Notes: generated by a model not told the origin, from the sequence alone. Shown: positions 1,757 through 25,240, counted from the first letter of the stretch. The stretch: 62,075 nucleotides of DNA from Minisyncoccota bacterium (GCA_021734445.1 JAIPIY010000003.1:1-62075), one strand, 5' to 3'. Numbers and translations are program-made.

Positions 1757-2058
1757 TTTGCACTTTTAGGTAGCTTTGGGGAGACTTAGTAATGGCGAAT
1801 GAAAAGTCCTTATCACCAACACCGGTCCCCAGAGTGAAATACACCTTATTGCTTCAGCATACGCCGAAAGGCTCCGTGATTCAGTTCACAAATATGCGAT
1901 GATGTCCCCTTCTTATCTGTCCTTTATGTGACTTTGTCCGTAAGACATAAGAAGTGTGTTCTACCTGTAGGAACCCTTTGGGGTGACAGTCGTCAGAACC
2001 AGACGGAAGTAATACGTGCGAGCCCACCCCTGTAGACGAGTTCTATGGGGGTGTTTTT
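1757..2058 (+). ncRNA. orphan structured RNA with its own terminator; RNase P RNA-like motifs (tentative, unassigned)
   Basis: About 300 nt GC-enriched non-coding stretch with no ORF. It contains several strong local hairpins (GCC-GAAA-GGC at about 1863-1872; CTTCTTA..TAAGAAG at about 1908-1954). It ends in CACCCC..GGGGGTG + TTTTTT (2025-2058), which fixes the strand. GAAAAGTCC, AGAGTGAAA and CGTCAGAACC resemble RNase P CR-I/CR-II/CR-IV, but I could not build a convincing P4 helix. Confidence 0.4.
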
Positions 2059-3696: not shown

Positions 3697-4941
3697 CTAT
3701 CTTTGAATTTTTCTTTTTGATTTGTGATACGTAATTGCAAATCGATGAGCTTCATTGTTTGCAAGAAGAATGTGTTTTTTATATTTTTCAATAATATCTT
3801 CTACACCCATAAGCGCCTTTGGTTTGTGTTTTTCATCTTTGACTACAGCAACAATGGGTGCAGATATGCCATATAATCGGCAAATTCGTTCGGTAACTCT
3901 TTTTTGAGCCTTTCCCCCATCAACGACAATAAGGGACGGACTTCCCCATCCTGGATGCCCAAAACGACGTGTTAATATCTCTTCTAACGCTTTGGTATCA
4001 TTTGATTTGTTTACACTGCGTATGATGAATTTTCTGTATGCTGATTTTTGTGGTTCGCCATTTTCTATTACTGTCATTACCCCGACCATATTGTCGCCCT
4101 GCAAATGCGCGATATCAAATGCTTCGATGCGAAATGATTCTTTTGATGTATGTGTTTCATGTCGCAACAATGCAATATCATTAATATGTTCCAATGCAAA
4201 AATTTGTCTTTTGATTCTGTCGGCTTCTTCGAATTCTTGTTTTTGCGCTGACGTGTGCATGTTTTTTCGCAATCGTTCGATCAACGTATTTTTCTTTCCC
4301 GATAAAAAAAGTTCAAGACCTTTGATATTTTTCTCATAGGTTTTTTGAAACGAATCCTCGGTATCTTTTGGAGCTAGCCCCAAAGACATATAAAAATCTT
4401 TTGCATGAGATTGTGTTGATTTTTCGTCAAAAAATGGAAATAATTTACGAAGAATTTTCAGTGCAGTTCGTGCAGATGCACCCGATGGAAATGGACCAAA
4501 AAAAGACCGTAGCACTATTTTTTTTGACAATTCTGTCGGGTGGGCGATTTTTTTCGTGAAATCAATATCTCGTTCTCTGATCAGTAAAACCCGTGGTAGC
4601 GATTCTTTGGTAATCGCAATCATGTAATAGCTTTTGTTGTCTTTGTCGCGGGTATTGTATGTTGGTTGATGTTCTTTGATCAAACGTGATTCCGCCAATA
4701 ATGCTTCTAATACAGAATCATATGTTTCCCAAGTAATTTTTGTAACCTGAGAAACCATTTCAACAATTTTAGGACCACGAGACTGGTTAATATCTTTGTT
4801 TGCATAACTGGAAATTCTGTCACGTAATGACGTTGCCTTTCCAATATAGAGAAGATTTTTATTATTCCAGAAAAAATACACGCCAGGAGATTCTGGTGCT
4901 GGTTGTGCCATCTGTACTATTTCCGAACGATGTATTTTCAT
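3697..4941 (-). CDS. uvrC: excinuclease ABC subunit C, short form
   Basis: GIY-YIG N-terminus (GVYFFWNNKNLLYIGKATSLRDRISSY), UVR-like helix (EEADRIKRQIFALEHI) and a C-terminal NEAHRFAITYHK motif. It ends before the usual (HhH)2 domain. Confidence 0.8.
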   Translation of the reverse strand: MKIHRSEIVQMAQPAPESPGVYFFWNNKNLLYIGKATSLRDRISSYANKDINQSRGPKIVEMVSQVTKITWETYDSVLEALLAESRLIKEHQPTYNTRDKDNKSYYMIAITKESLPRVLLIRERDIDFTKKIAHPTELSKKIVLRSFFGPFPSGASARTALKILRKLFPFFDEKSTQSHAKDFYMSLGLAPKDTEDSFQKTYEKNIKGLELFLSGKKNTLIERLRKNMHTSAQKQEFEEADRIKRQIFALEHINDIALLRHETHTSKESFRIEAFDIAHLQGDNMVGVMTVIENGEPQKSAYRKFIIRSVNKSNDTKALEEILTRRFGHPGWGSPSLIVVDGGKAQKRVTERICRLYGISAPIVAVVKDEKHKPKALMGVEDIIEKYKKHILLANNEAHRFAITYHKSKRKIQR

Positions 4942-21869: not shown

Positions 21870-21975
21870 ATATTTTTCTTGATTATCTTTCTTCTTAACA
21901 TAATTATAGTATATCACAAAGACGGGTGGTAATTTTTTATTGATTAATAGGATAAATTATTGTATTAAACTACAA

Positions 21976-22006
21976 CAAAAACAAGTCACAGAGTGACTTG
22001 TTTTTG
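21976..22006. terminator. bidirectional terminator hairpin bounding the island
   Basis: AAAAACAAGTCAC-AGAG-TGACTTGTTTTT, with an A-run and a T-run on either side. Confidence 0.7.
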
Positions 22007-22043
22007 TTTGCTATATTCTAGCCCTTTCGAGCGCTTGAACTAG

Positions 22044-22149
22044 CACTCGTGACGGTGAGGGTTCTCGAGATAGAACCAACCAGAGTCCTTACCCCATAAT
22101 GTTATTTTAATGTTTTTAGTATAACATTTTGACCCTTCTCGTGCGACTA
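22044..22149 (-). repeat. island repeat element A (pseudo-tRNA-3'-end module)
   Basis: Aligns with 23802-23919. Shared plus-strand blocks are GGTGAG, AGATAGAACC, TTACCC, TTTTTAGTAT and an identical 19-mer GACCCTTCTCGTGCGACTA (22131-22149 = 23901-23919). On the minus strand it ends ...GGTTCTATCT..CCCTCACCG, resembling the tRNA-Glu 3' end. Confidence 0.8.
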
Positions 22150-22165
22150 AATAATTTGATATTCC

Positions 22166-23296
22166 TCACCAATCCATATTCGCCATGTCGTCGTACATTC
22201 TTATCATGTATTCAATATATTCTTTAATTTCTTGACTAGACATTCGACTAATCATATCGTTACGGGTATTTTCATTTTTTGAAAAAGAAACATTTAAGCC
22301 TGCATTTATATAGGCAAAAATACTTTGTGTTGAAGTATGTTTGCTAATTAATTTCAAAAACGATTTCATTACACTGAAATTATCCTCCTGATTGCTCCAT
22401 CGAACAGAAACTGACTTATCATTCAGTGTACATGAAATTTTATGTCTAGCTCCCTCTAAATAAAAACTAAATACAGTATATGTGCCTCCGTGGGCTGAAG
22501 GGTTTCTTTTATACTTAGCTAAGCCAATCAATTTATCATAAATATCTTTAAATTCAGGTTCATTAATATCAAAGACCTTCTTAAATTTCTCACTCCATTT
22601 TAAATTTGAAAATCTTTCTACATTTTCTCTTTCTGGAATATCTCTAAACGCTAAAAATAGCACACAAAGATGTTCTAACATACTAAAAAATGAAAAATAT
22701 GAAGCTGTCTCGTAATATTTAATTTCGTAGATTGCTTTGTTTGAAGTTACTGTTGTAACGTTACCAAATTTTTTTATCTTTGGGTGTGATTTTTCTGCTA
22801 TCTTCCTTTTGTGCAAGGTTATTTTTTGAAAATAGTCATAAGGCTTAAATAATTCGTTAAATTTATTTTCAACTATTATCTCTCCCTTTAAAAGGGCTTC
22901 TTTGGCGTATTCTTCAACGAGTGGTAAAGTAGCTAATAAGACTTTGTATAATAAACCTTCCAAAGATTCAGCCACCCTCATTGCTTCATCTTCTGTATTA
23001 GCACTTACATATATTCTAAAACCGAATTTTTGATGAGCAATTGAGCAACTATATTTGTTTTTATAAGCAAAATATATTGACCAATTTATTTTCTCCATTG
23101 GTTGATCGGATATTCTAAATGATAAAATATCAGAAAAAATGTATCTTGCTAGTCGCCATATGTCATAGTCTCCAGAAAGACGATGTTTGTAACTAATTTG
23201 TGTTCCTGAGTTTTTAATAGGAGATTGGGTAAAATCTTTTAGCTGTTTTTGTATTTTGTTAGTAAGTTTTGTTTTGTTGTCTGGTAGCATATACAC
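22166..23296 (-). CDS. hypothetical protein with Rx4H HEPN-type motif (candidate RNase effector)
   Basis: 376 aa, K/N/I/F-rich. KYKRNPSAHGG (R264-H269, nt 22490-22507) fits the HEPN Rx4-6H signature (RNxxxH type). I could recognise no other family. Confidence 0.6.
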   Translation of the reverse strand: MYMLPDNKTKLTNKIQKQLKDFTQSPIKNSGTQISYKHRLSGDYDIWRLARYIFSDILSFRISDQPMEKINWSIYFAYKNKYSCSIAHQKFGFRIYVSANTEDEAMRVAESLEGLLYKVLLATLPLVEEYAKEALLKGEIIVENKFNELFKPYDYFQKITLHKRKIAEKSHPKIKKFGNVTTVTSNKAIYEIKYYETASYFSFFSMLEHLCVLFLAFRDIPERENVERFSNLKWSEKFKKVFDINEPEFKDIYDKLIGLAKYKRNPSAHGGTYTVFSFYLEGARHKISCTLNDKSVSVRWSNQEDNFSVMKSFLKLISKHTSTQSIFAYINAGLNVSFSKNENTRNDMISRMSSQEIKEYIEYMIRMYDDMANMDW

Positions 23297-23326
23297 AAAC
23301 CAAAAGATACTAATCTTTTGGTGAGA

Positions 23327-23767
23327 TTATTTTTTATTAATAAAATTAATATATAATTCTTCTTTAAGTTGGAAACCGGAAGGACCAGTACCAAAACTAT
23401 TATCAATAAATTCTATATAACCACGTGATACAAGTGAATCTAATCCATTACCTGAAATTAGTCCTTTTTTATAATCCGACATTGTAATGAAAGTAGTTCC
23501 TTGTTTAATATATTCTTCAATAATAGATTTTTCAGTTTCTGAAAAAATATTTTCTGTATTTGATTTAATAGATTTATTTTTTAAATAATTAATCAGTAAT
23601 CTACTTAAAACCTTGGTTGCTGAGAAAAAACAAATAAAAATTAATACAATAGTTACAGTGTCTTTTATGTTTAAATAAAAAAGAAATGTAATTAGTGATG
23701 CAACAAAAAGTGACAAATTTGTGGAGTCATCTTTTTCGGAATAAATTTTTTTAAAAAGTTCGTTCAT
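23327..23767 (-). CDS. small membrane protein: two N-terminal TM helices plus a C-terminal globular domain
   Basis: 146 aa. Hydrophobic segments LSLFVASLITFLFYL and TIVLIFICFFSATKVL. TATAAT-containing upstream region; no recognisable family. Confidence 0.55.
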   Translation of the reverse strand: MNELFKKIYSEKDDSTNLSLFVASLITFLFYLNIKDTVTIVLIFICFFSATKVLSRLLINYLKNKSIKSNTENIFSETEKSIIEEYIKQGTTFITMSDYKKGLISGNGLDSLVSRGYIEFIDNSFGTGPSGFQLKEELYINFINKK

Positions 23768-23801
23768 AATTTTTATTATACTACTTTAAACCGTTTATAT
23801 G

Positions 23802-23919
23802 CTTCTCGTGCAAGCACGAATTGGTGAGCCTTTAACAGATAGAACCCCTGTGGTTCATTACCCTGTAAGGCGGTTTGTTATTTTTTTAGTATGTCATCTC
23901 GACCCTTCTCGTGCGACTA
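23802..23919 (-). repeat. island repeat element B (pseudo-tRNA-3'-end module flanked by direct repeats)
   Basis: Bounded by CTTCTCGTGC at 23802-23811 and 23905-23914. The minus strand reads TAGTCGCACGAGAAGGGTC...GGGGTTCTATCTGTTAAAGGCTCACCA-ATTCGTGCTT-GCACGAGAAG. This parallels the real tRNA-Glu end GGGGTCACCA-TCAACAGCGC-GCACGAGAAG. Confidence 0.8.
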
Positions 23920-25053
23920 TTATTTTAAAATTAAACTTAAAATAAAACCAAGTGTTGCCCCAACCATAGTAGTCACAAAAAGATAAGTGTTGTTTGTACG
24001 GTTTGATTGTTTTTTGTCCATAAAATCGACCAAATCAGAAATACTAGATAAATATTGTTGTTCTTCTTGGTCATCATCTTCAATTTTGAAGAATTCCTTT
24101 AAATGAAAAACTCCTTTTTCTCTTTCCGTATCTTTCATTCTTTGATTGATATTTTGAGAAAAAGATATGTTGTAATATTTGAGTTCAACTACTTTTAAAA
24201 ATAGCTTTTCTATTCTTGAGGATGTTCGCCTGAATATATTTGCTTGCCACCATTCTATACCAAACCCACTTTTAGCTTTGACAGCTAATTTGTCTATTAT
24301 TTGACGCATATTTAACTTATAATTTCTAAAAAGCACTTGTAGATAATAAAGTGAAAATTCTTCAGATAACTCATTAATTACAAATTTCTTAAAGTCTTCT
24401 TCATTTTTAAAATTAGTTTGTGAGCCATTGATTTTAACTAAATCATAGCTACTTGTGGGTACAATTTTTGTGAAGATTTTTAAGTTTTCTTTATTTAGAT
24501 ATTCAGTATTAATGTTTGAGTTATCTAAAAGTTCTATTTCAAAGTCGCCATGAAAGGGACTTGGTCCAAGAACCTCCAATTCAAACCTAATTTCTTTGTT
24601 ATTTTCAATTTCATTTTTAATAAATTCTCTTACACACACTACTGCCCAGCTACTTTCTTCAGTATCTAGCAATTTCCTTGGTTCAATTATTGTAAAGGTG
24701 AAATAATAGTTGAAATAAATTTCAACTTTGAAGAATTCGTTACTCTTATAACAAAAACCCCAGCCTAATGCTTTTTCTTGCATCTTCTTAGGGATAAATA
24801 AATCAAATGATATCTTGCCCTCACAGAATGAGGGGAAAAACCCGGTGGCATCCTCAAAATTAAAATTTTCTTCCTTTATTTCTTCATCACTTGGAATAAA
24901 GCCACTTCTAAAACTATTCTCCTGAATATCAATTTTTAAATTGCTAATATTTGTTATCTTGTCTAAATCTTCCTTTAAATACTTAATGTATTCTTCAGGG
25001 GACATTTTTTGGGTTGCTTTAAAGTGAAAACACCCCAGTCCAATTTTTTTCAT
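23920..25053 (-). CDS. hypothetical protein with single C-terminal TM anchor
   Basis: 377 aa, K/N/E/F-rich, C-terminal YLFVTTMVGATLGFILSLILK. Its own TATAAT box lies upstream. No recognisable family. Confidence 0.6.
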   Translation of the reverse strand: MKKIGLGCFHFKATQKMSPEEYIKYLKEDLDKITNISNLKIDIQENSFRSGFIPSDEEIKEENFNFEDATGFFPSFCEGKISFDLFIPKKMQEKALGWGFCYKSNEFFKVEIYFNYYFTFTIIEPRKLLDTEESSWAVVCVREFIKNEIENNKEIRFELEVLGPSPFHGDFEIELLDNSNINTEYLNKENLKIFTKIVPTSSYDLVKINGSQTNFKNEEDFKKFVINELSEEFSLYYLQVLFRNYKLNMRQIIDKLAVKAKSGFGIEWWQANIFRRTSSRIEKLFLKVVELKYYNISFSQNINQRMKDTEREKGVFHLKEFFKIEDDDQEEQQYLSSISDLVDFMDKKQSNRTNNTYLFVTTMVGATLGFILSLILK

Positions 25054-25113
25054 AAATATATTATATAACTAATTCTTGTATATAAAAACAGTATACTTCT
25101 CGTGCGCGCTGTT

Positions 25114-25188
25114 GATGGTGACCCCACGGAGAATCGAACTCCGATTTCCAGGATGAAAACCTGGCGTCCTAACCGTTAGACGATGGGG
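25114..25188 (-). tRNA. tRNA-Glu (anticodon UUC), CCA encoded
   Basis: GGCCCCATCGTCTAACGGTTAGGACGCCAGGTTTTCATCCTGGAAATCGGAGTTCGATTCTCCGTGGGGTCACCA; anticodon loop TTTTCAT. Confidence 0.9.
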
Positions 25189-25240
25189 CCTATAAAACGC
25201 TATGAAGTATAGCATCTTTTACAAAAATGACAATATGTAT

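Follow-up and report, generated by a model that had tools for sequence, protein, structure and literature searches.

The DNA 3' of the intact tRNA-Glu gene in the 62-kb stretch analysed here (the window), from a bacterium of the candidate phyla radiation (CPR), probably holds two non-autonomous integrative mini-elements that inserted serially at the extreme 3' end of the tRNA gene, and their relatives in other genomes make up what is apparently an undescribed, widespread family of site-specific mobile elements, the tRNA-Glu cassettes; we found nothing in the literature that describes such a system. At the level of sequence comparison between hosts, the data presented below demonstrate the boundaries of the element, its specificity for tRNA-Glu, the horizontal transfer of cassette 2 and the existence of arrays with variable content.

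Layout of the tRNA-Glu locus

Read on the minus strand, the locus contains every element of the layout described in the first-pass annotation, including its three ORFs (23920-25053, 23327-23767 and 22166-23296; Table 1). The exact sequence GCACGAGAAG occurs four times in the window (25096-25105, 23905-23914, 23802-23811 and 22135-22144), and allowing up to one mismatch gives 8 occurrences compared with 1.4 expected, a number reached in 0 of 100 shuffles; the 11-mer reported earlier at 25094-25104 had been placed two bases off and lies at 25096-25106. The 19-mer TAGTCGCACGAGAAGGGTC is found twice, as had been claimed (23901-23919 and 22131-22149, with 0 expected), and the two ~96-nt modules that begin with it are homologous and can be aligned over ~100 nt; the nhmmer profile used to score them (Table 1) was built from copies in other genomes. 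Both modules start with TAGTCG-CACGAGAAGGGTC, module B ending in GGTTCTATCTGTTAAAGGCTCACC, a pseudo tRNA 3' end, and module C in GGTTCTATCTCGAGAACCCTCACC. The likeness of this end to the T-arm and acceptor 3' strand of tRNA-Glu, first described as a degenerate tRNA-Glu 3' end, is weak in the window alone but holds over ~20 junctions in other genomes.

Element 1 would extend from the TCACC of tRNA-Glu on one side to the TCACC of module B (23827-23823) on the other, limits that we take from the comparison made below for element 2 and from the junction table; a 1232-nt Logan contig spans just cassette 1. The TATAAT promoters proposed in the first-pass annotation are there as motifs, 7–9 nt upstream of the first ATG in each cassette, but a generic promoter scan of the region was not above chance. 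G+C is 24–31% inside the region compared with 35–40% outside, and we count this dip as support for foreign composition. Beyond module C, the flank at 22010-22053 is unlike the corresponding continuation in locus L064 (ATTTCGTG-TTAG-CATGAGAAG), and a similar relic, GCTAGTTCGAG, lies 3' of modules in L037, L035 and L070. The module is present only behind tRNA-Glu and is absent behind the other 11 tRNAs of the window. No strain variants of the window genome were found, an exact lookup of its PAP2 protein returning the same contig only.

Table 1. Features of the tRNA-Glu locus, in window coordinates
Feature	Position	Strand	Basis or remark
tRNA-Glu(UUC), intact	25116..25190	-	ARAGORN; Rfam tRNA 62.6 bits
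Insertion target, tRNA-Glu 3' end ...GGGGTCACCA	TCACC = 25121-25117	-	
Element 1 (left arm, gene 1, module B), ~1.29 kb	23823..25116	-	putative limits
Left (P'-type) arm of element 1: ATCAACAG (8 nt), CGCG, CACGAGAAG	25096..25116	-	
Gene 1, 377 aa, C-terminal hydrophobic segment	23920..25053	-	ORF; TATAAT 9 nt before ATG
Module B, right (P-type) arm of element 1	23823..23919	-	nhmmer E = 2.7e-23; alignments A1, A2
Element 2 (left arm, genes 2 and 3, module C), 1769 nt	22054..23822	-	
Left (P'-type) arm of element 2: AATTCGTG (8 nt), CTTG, CACGAGAAG	23802..23822	-	
Gene 2, 146 aa, two N-terminal hydrophobic segments	23327..23767	-	TATAAT 7 nt before ATG
Gene 3, 374 aa	22166..23290	-	ORF 22166-23296; called start 23290
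Module C, right (P-type) arm of element 2	22054..22149	-	nhmmer E = 8e-24
Relic or native 3' flank: GTCACGAG-TGCTAG-TTCAAGCGCTCG..., degenerate trailer with hairpin	22010..22053	-	
Bidirectional terminator at the end of the locus, a perfect 16-bp inverted repeat	21974..22008	.	repeat search

Element boundaries and occupancy in other hosts

Window positions 23831-22054 correspond to positions 2969-4746 of L064 with 99.78% identity (4 mismatches in 1778 nt), and the two hosts are 69–70% identical in ClpB and FtsZ and 77% identical in tRNA-Glu; we regard this comparison as decisive. In both L064 and a further locus, L079, cassette 2 is located directly 3' of tRNA-Glu, with an identical element 2 left arm immediately after the tRNA gene. 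The block shared with L064 extends from TCACC(A) to the TCACC of the module, breaking off exactly at 22054; its last bases are CCCTCACC, and the hosts diverge beyond them. These limits define the mobile unit as 8 nt, CTAG-CACGAGAAG, promoter, cargo and TAGTCG-CACGAGAAGGGTC-module-TCACC, and they imply that the copies of CGCACGAGAAG are not recombination junctions. The 10–11-bp repeats, initially read as direct repeats that delimit each cargo, lie, by this comparison, inside a single element, each of whose two conserved arms contains one copy, and the trailer and GCACGAGAAG copy that follow module B belong to cassette 2, not to cassette 1 as first assigned. The crossover, putatively at a dinucleotide, would lie in or next to TCACC. 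An analysis of attP symmetry, which placed the centre at the first two spacer bases, was dropped because these two bases differ between attL and attR of element 2.

Occupancy at tRNA-Glu varies, with one element in L064 and L079 compared with two in the window, and arrays with two or three modules in L035, L006, L011, L030, L037, L016 and L004. Four loci (L010, L039, L070 and L074) share the same neighbouring tRNA-Val, and TsaD where it falls within the locus, and carry different cargo. Serial site-specific insertion, raised in the first-pass annotation as a question, is thus supported by related genomes, in which the number of units ranges from one to three and the cargo differs; such loci were found as anticipated, but no truly empty attB was seen among them, nor a circular form or a free attP. 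One pair considered as filled and empty sites (L038 and L041) turned out to be an ordinary indel with a gene on the opposite strand.

Distribution and structure of the module

We found ~40 module copies in CPR metagenome contigs and MAGs, frequently as parts of arrays, with cargo ranging from 0.3 to 15 kb. The 19-mer is present in 4 genomes in GTDB, all CPR, a looser pattern search of metagenomes gave ~27 genuine copies, and a profile search gave 36 distinct copies in addition to those of L064, L068, L070 and L072; exact-pattern searches of IMG/VR returned no copy of the module or arm. The repeats are thus neither confined to the window nor scattered at random. Module length is 89–90 nt in 32 of the 36 copies and 88–91 nt in all but one. 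In 14 loci the module is located 3' of tRNA-Glu on the same strand, at a distance of 365 nt to 15 kb, and at ~20 junctions in other genomes TCACC, exactly 8 nt and CTAG-CACGAGAAG follow both genuine tRNA-Glu genes and internal modules, while terminal modules are followed straight away by a terminator. The 3' end of the module mimics the tRNA-Glu T-arm and acceptor 3' strand (GGTTCnATCT....GAAnGnTCACC), and each copy closes with ...(G/C)(C/T)TCACC (i.e., with the target repeat at the distal boundary). The cargo of L003 is 89.7% identical to internal genes of the recombinase-bearing L038 element, forming a decay series.

Other descriptions of the module were tried and rejected. The ATG of a putative mini-ORF or leader peptide (SD-like GAGAAGGG, ATG and 2–3 codons) had been imposed by the search pattern and is not conserved in profile-found copies; the frames of a coding remnant running through the module are not conserved; and the module as a whole does not match the tRNA model at E ≤ 1, just its last ~27 nt being tRNA-like.

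A candidate recombinase

No recombinase gene is present in the 62-kb window, or in either of its elements, or in the 12.4 kb that were read of the 16-kb L064 contig; we therefore class the window elements as non-autonomous, and their movement would probably take place in trans. A candidate for the recombinase anticipated in the first-pass annotation is found elsewhere in the family: a large serine recombinase (Resolvase, Recombinase and Zn_ribbon_recom domains) is encoded in L011, L030 and L038, and five of the six loci retrieved through its close homologues contain tRNA-Glu followed by the trailer and the CACGAGAAG motif, one of them (L071) with just the last bases of tRNA-Glu. Two of the large islands, L068 and L070, are complete from tRNA-Glu to module, and in both the large serine recombinase is the sole recombinase inside, its gene being located in the interior and not beside an end. 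A position adjoining the element end in L011 and L030 is not demonstrable there, because both contigs end 52 nt past the gene. At E ≤ 1e-60 the recombinase has at least 8000 relatives, and distant ones (53–58% identity; two in IMG/VR) lie beside tRNA-Ser and tRNA-Gln at the ends of provirus contigs.

The block shared at the att junctions is just 4–5 bp, and the recombinase is linked to it by co-occurrence. An attP of a large serine recombinase is usually ~50 bp; the attP proposed here, of ~125 bp and with three motif copies, is atypical for the class and closer to the arm-type sites of tyrosine integrases. Recombination of attP with attL or attR is not known from canonical large serine recombinases, and tandem accretion would therefore call for a permissive enzyme of the Ccr type.

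It is conceivable, if unlikely, that the integrative-element model holds with a different catalyst, either a tyrosine integrase or some other enzyme whose gene lies elsewhere, and that the serine recombinase is a passenger of one sub-lineage. The long conserved attP with its repeated CNCGAGAAG motifs resembles an arm-type site, tyrosine integrases classically target tRNA 3' ends, a GC-rich companion element has the 12–18-bp identity blocks typical of tyrosine systems, and a tyrosine recombinase gene (Phage_integrase) is found beside a module, in L070. That gene is located just outside the module, however, and only the serine recombinase is present between tRNA-Glu and module in L068 and L070; no tyrosine recombinase recurs in the loci, the junction identity block is just TCAC(C), which suits a serine recombinase, and the distant relatives of the serine recombinase are also found beside tRNA genes.

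Alternative explanations for the modules and repeats

We consider it improbable that the main role of the module is that of a small RNA or 3'-UTR element (e.g., one that directs processing or confers stability by mimicking a tRNA 3' end) and that its recurrence behind cargo reflects this role. The module always points the same way as the tRNA and the cargo genes, begins straight after stop codons or a promoter-like TGTCAC repeat region, is strictly conserved in length, is followed by strong terminators in its terminal copies, and gives single-sequence folds with z ~ -2.3, all of which would suit an RNA. Against this, no Rfam family matches at E ≤ 1; RNAalifold predicts 0 pairs over 28 copies and a local run on both strands gives a weak local hairpin only; the best local hairpin has 0 compensatory pairs, is not above shuffles and shows no covariation; and copies retrieved independently of the pattern do not conserve the mini-ORF or its ATG. 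A homology break exactly at the module 3' end is also left unexplained. An RNA role of the module could coexist with a function as an att site.

An integron-like exchange, in which the cargo alone is mobile and moves by recombination between the CACGAGAAG after the trailer and the CACGAGAAG at the start of the module, the module being a chromosomal or attC-like site, has a slim chance of being correct. In every cassette, (C)TAG...CACGAGAAG bounds the variable cargo on both sides, and the type-a trailer (CTCGTGC-TA-GCACGAG) can pair with the module 5' GCACGAG, with a compensatory variant of this pairing in L035 and L042. However, cassette 2 moved together with its trailer, left CACGAGAAG and module, and the break is at TCACC, not at CACGAGAAG; an empty site of the form tRNA-trailer-CACGAGAAG-GGGTC-module is not seen among the ~40 copies; the repeats are direct, unlike the inverted repeats of attC; RNAalifold gives no consensus hairpin; trailer types b and c are not palindromic; and no IntI-like gene was seen. 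The likeness to cassette arrays suggested at first inspection thus extends to the layout, but no integron feature was found.

A local tandem duplication or a generic intergenic repeat without mobility has next to no probability: both modules and both promoter contexts are alike within the window, but genes 1 and 3 are unrelated, the module avoids all tRNAs of the window except tRNA-Glu, and cassette 2 recurs at 99.8% identity in another host. A transposon or MITE with target-site duplication was also rejected, all four repeats being one sequence that travels with the element; no terminal inverted repeats were noticed by eye at the cassette ends.

Proposed mechanism

In the integrative-element model, each element would run from an 8-nt spacer through (C)TAG-CACGAGAAG, a TATAAT promoter and its one or two genes of cargo to TAGTCG-CACGAGAAGGGTC and the fixed-length module. 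In the circular form, the module 3' end and the spacer-CACGAGAAG arm would be contiguous, forming an attP of ~125 bp that would recombine with ...GGGTCACC of tRNA-Glu, with the crossover in or next to TCACC, leaving the spacer arm behind tRNA-Glu and the module at the far end. Repeated rounds of insertion would build an array in which the newest element may be the one beside tRNA-Glu, unless insertion took place into the pseudo-site of a module. The large, phage-related members (10–15 kb) encode the large serine recombinase, which would be the catalyst for these and would also move the recombinase-less cassettes in trans. The fixed 89–90-nt spacing suggests that the CACGAGAAGGGTC motif at the module 5' end may be an accessory protein-binding site.

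Cargo genes

Nothing in the cargo of either cassette matches Pfam, PADLOC or NCBIfam, the closest being a sub-threshold match of gene 2 to Pfam SieB (E = 0.015). Only 3 homologues of gene 1 were found in 5.8 billion proteins, all three beside tRNA-Glu or its 3' end. Gene 3 has 18 homologues and an invariant R-N-x3-H-G at residues 262-268 (ORF numbered from 23296; alignment A3); its sequence has no match in Pfam or the PDB, and its confident AF2 model (pLDDT 82) has no fold match in the PDB. Genes 1 and 3 show no similarity, which rules them out as paralogues from a tandem duplication. The larger islands carry a TIR-domain (ThsB-type) protein, a caspase-like peptidase, DUF4238 and a diversity-generating retroelement.

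Comparison with known systems

The closest analogues are the SCCmec/pseudo-SCC composite islands, the CIMEs and the tandem arrays of tRNA islands. SCCmec/pseudo-SCC elements and the Enterococcus cassette chromosome use the large serine recombinases CcrAB and CcrC. SCC elements all enter a single conserved gene, rlmH (orfX), at its very 3' end, each bringing a copy of the integration-site sequence so that elements pile up in tandem, and recombinase-less members with the same bracketing repeats are thought to be moved in trans. The tRNA-Glu family likewise targets the 3' end of one gene, forms tandem arrays, has recombinase-less members and includes a large serine recombinase, but its target is tRNA-Glu, its hosts are CPR bacteria, its cassettes are much smaller (0.5–1.8 kb, 1–2 genes), and it has a conserved 90-nt arm, a tRNA-end mimic and a repeated CNCGAGAAG motif. 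By analogy of layout and enzyme class, the family would work like SCC, but with its tRNA-Glu target it is not a member of it.

CIMEs, as known with ICESt1 and ICESt3, are non-autonomous, att-flanked elements that undergo site-specific accretion beside an autonomous element. Like CIMEs and the island arrays at tRNA or tmRNA genes, the tRNA-Glu family targets a tRNA 3' end and has displaced pseudo-ends at its boundaries; those systems use tyrosine integrases and ~15–50-bp identity blocks that rebuild the tRNA, whereas the tRNA-Glu family shares just TCAC(C) and its candidate enzyme is a serine recombinase. Tandem genomic-island arrays have been mentioned previously (PMC9580842). As expected of a tRNA island, tRNA-Glu is intact, the elements start right after TCACC(A), the target repeat recurs at the distal boundary and occupancy is variable, but the window elements do not encode a recombinase.

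Integron arrays resemble the tRNA-Glu family in their co-oriented 1–2-gene cassettes with a ~100-nt site behind each and highly variable, mostly uncharacterised cargo. They differ in that the tRNA-Glu cassettes have direct repeats without inverted R''/R' cores, lack a conserved hairpin, carry their own promoters and include the site on both sides of the cargo in the mobile unit, and no IntI tyrosine recombinase with attI was found near the array in the window or in the annotated loci. Phage integration of the phiC31/Bxb1/A118 type shares the domain architecture of the enzyme, the very short crossover identity and an attP left half that mimics the attB left half, but classical serine integrases have an attP of ~50 bp without distant motifs, and, as they are not known to target attL or attR, accretion would not be expected of them.

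Implications for CPR bacteria

CPR bacteria (Patescibacteria), with their tiny genomes, are considered poor in mobile elements. The ~40 module copies and the at least 8000 relatives of the recombinase point to a site-specific mobile system widespread in this group, in which a 1.8-kb cassette has moved almost unchanged between hosts ~30% apart in housekeeping DNA. A more far-reaching reading, which we put forward tentatively, is that a widespread clade of large serine recombinases, acting on a composite attP of ~125 bp (the tRNA-end mimic with three phased CNCGAGAAG sites), may provide a CPR platform that functions like an integron, loading and shuffling one- or two-gene cassettes with their own promoters at tRNA-Glu, possibly for defence; the small cassettes would then be a selected, trans-mobilised class and not products of decay, and in the distant 5' motif there would be a new type of accessory site for a serine recombinase. 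A fixed-length arm with a distant repeated motif would, if functional, be unusual for the enzyme class. The system offers a natural set of matched att pairs for a clade of large serine recombinases that is still unexplored, enzymes of practical use as tools for integration, and it makes tRNA-Glu a place where accessory genes can be expected to cluster in CPR bacteria.

Layout of the array

Read on the minus strand, the window carries two cassettes in tandem behind tRNA-Glu, each composed of a left arm, its cargo (gene 1, or genes 2 and 3), and a conserved right arm, the module, which ends in a mimic of the tRNA-Glu 3' end (see table). The repeats from which the first-pass annotation proposed serial insertion at tRNA-Glu are borne out statistically: all four copies of GCACGAGAAG lie in the array region, and the count obtained when one mismatch is allowed is reached in 0 of 100 shuffles; the 19-mer occurs twice, compared with 0 expected; and modules B and C can be aligned over ~100 nt. 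One of the annotated repeat coordinates was two bases off. The G+C content is 24%–31% within the region versus 35%–40% in its surroundings. Tandem duplication is ruled out as the origin of the array because genes 1 and 3 are unrelated.

Features of the array in the window and of related loci (L-numbers, contigs from other genomes and metagenomes)
Feature	Position	Strand	Sequence or remark
tRNA-Glu(UUC)	25190-25116	minus	3' end GGGGTCACCA
Left arm of element 1	behind tRNA-Glu	minus	ATCAACAG-CGCG-CACGAGAAG
Gene 1	25053-23920	minus	377 aa, TATAAT ahead
Module B	directly behind gene 1 TAA	minus	TAA-TAGTCG-CACGAGAAGGGTC, ~70 nt, GGGGTTCTATCTGTTAAAGGCTCACC
Left arm of element 2	behind module B	minus	AATTCGTG-CTTG-CACGAGAAG
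Gene 2	23767-23327	minus	TATAAT ahead
Gene 3	23290-22166	minus	
Module C	behind gene 3	minus	TAGTCG-CACGAGAAGGGTC ... GGTTCTATCTCGAGAACCCTCACC
Locus end	behind module C	minus	GTCACGAGTGCTAGTTCAAGCGCTCG, then perfect 16-bp terminator hairpin
Close TATAAT-ATG	window 25053-25075, 23767-23785	minus	
Close TATAAT-ATG	L006 ~4300-4325, ~3815-3831; L007 ~2015-2031		
Operator-like region	L003 6195-6235; L006 3770-3815, 6195-6235; L038 9150-9212		many further loci
G+C-rich element	L015 1572-1682	minus	
G+C-rich element	L007 1752-1966; L004 4701-4812; L072 5789-5940, 7217-7415; L074 ~4380-4480; L006 6376-6449		
Retroelement	L066 9221-10624; L068 15594-16997; L069 10058-11461		

In each cassette, the first gene lacks a Shine-Dalgarno sequence and its ATG is preceded at just 6–9 nt by a TATAAT, an arrangement suggestive of mRNAs with little or no leader. 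A hairpin between genes 2 and 3 (23299-23322; 10-bp stem, 4-nt loop; ACCAAAAGAT-TAGT-ATCTTTTGGT) is terminator-like on both strands and is kept in the second host of cassette 2 (L064, below). Two Logan contigs, L002 (SRR12088351, 1232 nt) and L001 (SRR12088350), start at the identical base within tRNA-Glu; L002 takes in cassette 1 as far as module B and no more, ending in ...TAATAGT, the final bases ahead of the module's CGCACGAGAAG motif. Population variation that splits the assembly graph could account for this, as could low coverage alone.

Cassette 2 in a second host

Among the 18 homologues of gene 3, one with 99% identity is found on JGI contig Ga0558716_25778 (L064), in the order tRNA-Val, tRNA-Glu, directly AATTCGTGCTTGCACGAGAAGCATATAAACGG, gene 2, gene 3, and module C. 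L064 2969-4746 matches window 23831-22054 at 99.78% identity with 4 mismatches (BLASTN); ClpB and FtsZ are just 69%–70% identical between the two contigs, and the tRNA-Glu genes 77%. The block of homology starts at (A)GG(G/C)TCACCA, a sequence that closes the tRNA in L064 and module B in the window, and stops at ...GAACCCTCACC, beyond which the window continues with GTCACGAG... and L064 with ATTTCGTG-TTAG-CATGAGAAG and a terminator. A third sample (L079) has the same arrangement as L064. The comparison indicates that cassette 2 is a discrete 1769-nt unit that has recently moved between distantly related hosts, at tRNA-Glu both times, and that it ends at TCACC, so that the cassette includes the trailer (the 8-nt spacer), the left CACGAGAAG, and the module. 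By the same evidence, the 10- to 11-bp direct repeats that had been read as cargo borders are not crossover points; they are internal to the element, one per conserved arm, and the breaks in homology fall at TCACC. From the junction grammar of cassette 2, we infer that cassette 1 spans 25116-23823.

One of the 4 differences over the 1.78-kb cassette is a CGA-to-TGA nonsense change in gene 3 of L064 (L064 4396-4400 versus window 22400-22404), where the gene is called as 296 + 67 aa; the cargo is thus already decaying in that host.

A module family tied to tRNA-Glu

Behind genuine tRNA-Glu genes and internal modules alike, TCACC is followed by exactly 8 variable nt and CTAG-CACGAGAAG, usually continuing with (C/T)ATA...AAAA and then a terminator or promoter, and the 8-mer types TTCAACAG, AAYTCGTG, TTTTAGAG, and AATTAGTG are common to tRNA and module positions. 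Terminal modules run from TCAC straight into a strong terminator, without trailer or motif. The pseudo-tRNA-Glu end noted earlier in each module holds up across junctions from other genomes: the final ~27 nt (GGTTCnATCT....GAAnGnTCACC) parallel GGTTCGATTCnCnGTAGGGTCACC of the tRNA. The L074 island is closed by an intermediate form, GGTTCCAATTCTGTACCACTAGGGTCAC.

When 185,579 species-representative genomes were scanned, the 19-mer had 4 exact matches, a count that by rough estimate is about that expected by chance; all four are in Saccharibacteria or Paceibacterota MAGs, with the remainder of the module behind each. Of the 42 metagenome loci matched by a looser pattern, ~27 are genuine modules and the others chance matches in G+C-rich coding sequence. 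A profile derived from these modules also detected copies outside the search pattern, giving 36 distinct copies; L064, L068, L070, and L072 carry copies beyond these. Measured from where the 5' motif starts, TCAC lies 89–90 nt away in 32 of the 36 and 88–91 nt away in all except one. The further copies in CPR MAGs and metagenomes are tied to tRNA-Glu: in 14 loci a same-strand tRNA-Glu (UUC or CUC) lies 365 nt to 15 kb upstream of the module, and none of the window's remaining 11 tRNAs has a module. Cassette number at tRNA-Glu also varies, as serial insertion had led the first-pass annotation to anticipate, with one cassette in L064 and common two- or three-module arrays (the seven loci L035, L006, L011, L030, L037, L016, and L004).

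Many modules, or a small ORF, are preceded by an operator-like conserved region (GTTACA-N6-TGTAAC, ~18 nt, TGTCACTTTTGTCAC), placed between leftward genes (often a ParB-type methylase) and the module; neither cassette in the window has it. L003 has a partial tRNA-Glu copy (2921-2960; the 5' half plus upstream 'aaattatattt') ~100 nt upstream of the intact gene.

A second small element occurs in six of the related loci, G+C rich and ~110–215 nt long, with the form GAATCGAAAGnCGGAG-[variable GC hairpin]-AGnCGGGGT...GTGACCGAnnnCCGTAGGGTCAC. The displaced last 12–18 nt of tRNA-Glu lie at or directly behind its end in L007, L015, L004, and the first L072 copy, and an intact tRNA-Glu is found just upstream in L007, L015, and L072. 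The element folds well (z = -3.3 to -4.7), has no Rfam match, and does not occur in the window. It could represent either a small RNA or an att arm used by a different tRNA-Glu-targeting family.

A candidate recombinase

ORF clustering across module-bearing loci identified a 438-aa protein in L011, L030, and L038 whose Resolvase, Recombinase, and zinc-ribbon domains mark it as a large serine recombinase, as well as a ParB-like N6/N4 methylase in six loci and a terminase large subunit in L030. The recombinase family is very large, and six loci were obtained via close homologues: in four of them, a tRNA-Glu lies on the opposite strand 6–8 kb downstream, followed by TCACC, 8 nt, and CTAG-CACGAG(A/T)AG, and a fifth contig ends in exactly this string. 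L068 and L070 are complete ~15-kb islands running from tRNA-Glu through module and terminator, with the large serine recombinase as the sole recombinase between their ends. The L003 cargo and internal genes of the L038 element share 89.7% identity, a match that ties small islands to large ones through deletion. In IMG/VR, more distantly related recombinases are found beside tRNA-Ser and tRNA-Gln at contig ends. The large serine recombinase is likely the enzyme of this module family. This enzyme has no homologue in the window; we infer from this that both cassettes there are non-autonomous and are moved in trans.

A diversity-generating retroelement (reverse transcriptase plus bAvd) is found within recombinase-bearing tRNA-Glu islands, and a long structured repeat, GTCTACCCATAGG...CCTATGGGTAGAC, follows closely behind the recombinase gene.

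Proposed mechanism and alternatives

In the proposed circular form, the module would adjoin the spacer-plus-motif arm, the rest of the circle being cargo. The resulting scaffold of ~125 bp would read CACGAGAAGGGTC, ~75 nt, ATCTCGAGAAGGCTCACC, 8 nt, and CTAG-CACGAGAAG, its left half acting as the mimic of the tRNA end. An imperfect inverted repeat extends from ATCTCGAG to CACGAGAA, such as is expected of a dimer-bound site. After exchange in or beside TCAC(C), the tRNA would be followed by the spacer arm, with the module on the far side; repeated exchange would build an array, with new elements entering either at the true tRNA end or at the pseudo-end of a module. The predicted junctions are ...AAAGGCTCACC + ATCAACAGCGCGCACGAGAAG for the element 1 circle, ...GAACCCTCACC + AATTCGTGCTTGCACGAGAAG for the element 2 circle, tRNA ...GGGGTCACC + AATTCGTGCTTG upon loss of element 1, and tRNA ...GGGGTCACC + GTCACGAGTGCTAG upon loss of both. 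The symmetry is centered on spacer positions where attL and attR of cassette 2 do not agree and was therefore not used to place the crossover dinucleotide. At its fixed 89–90 nt, the 5' motif could be an accessory binding site or, judging by CGAGAAGGGTCA versus CCGTAGGGTCA, could be a fossil of an older pseudo-tRNA end.

We put forward, tentatively, the possibility that these parts make up a platform dedicated to cassettes, with a serine recombinase as its driver and a composite att scaffold as its base. An unlikely alternative catalyst is a tyrosine integrase: it would fit the long att region, and L070 has one such gene next to its module, but across the loci none is found repeatedly. The module's orientation with the cargo and the terminators behind it would suit an RNA role as a second function; as a primarily structured RNA it is quite improbable, given that it has no Rfam match, no consensus fold, and no covariation. 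Integron-like exchange at CACGAGAAG is highly improbable, as the homology breaks in the L064 comparison contradict it and the empty site that it predicts is absent among the ~40 module copies; the tRNA-Glu cassette system is not an integron. A generic repeat or local duplication is refuted.

Functionally, the system resembles SCCmec/pseudo-SCC composite islands as well as CIME accretion, and it shares its layout with tRNA-island tandem arrays; because its target differs from that of the SCC family, it is not a member of that family. We found no description of it in the literature and no Rfam family for the module.

Cargo

No Pfam, NCBIfam, or PADLOC model matched genes 1–3. Gene 1 has just three homologues in the database searched, all beside tRNA-Glu or its 3' end (counted as the latter where a short contig begins there); those in L072 and L075 have the same trailer and motif ahead of the gene, and that in L074 is located further downstream, past a G+C-rich stretch, with no left arm seen ahead of it. 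The predicted model of gene 3 is confident (pLDDT 82), and a fold search with it gave no match; its homologues have an invariant R-N-x3-H-G that is reminiscent of HEPN RNases, which is only a hint. The larger islands carry a ThsB-type TIR protein, a caspase-like peptidase, DUF4238, T5orf172, HNH, and a diversity-generating retroelement, and by this gene content the tRNA-Glu locus looks like an accessory or defence hotspot.
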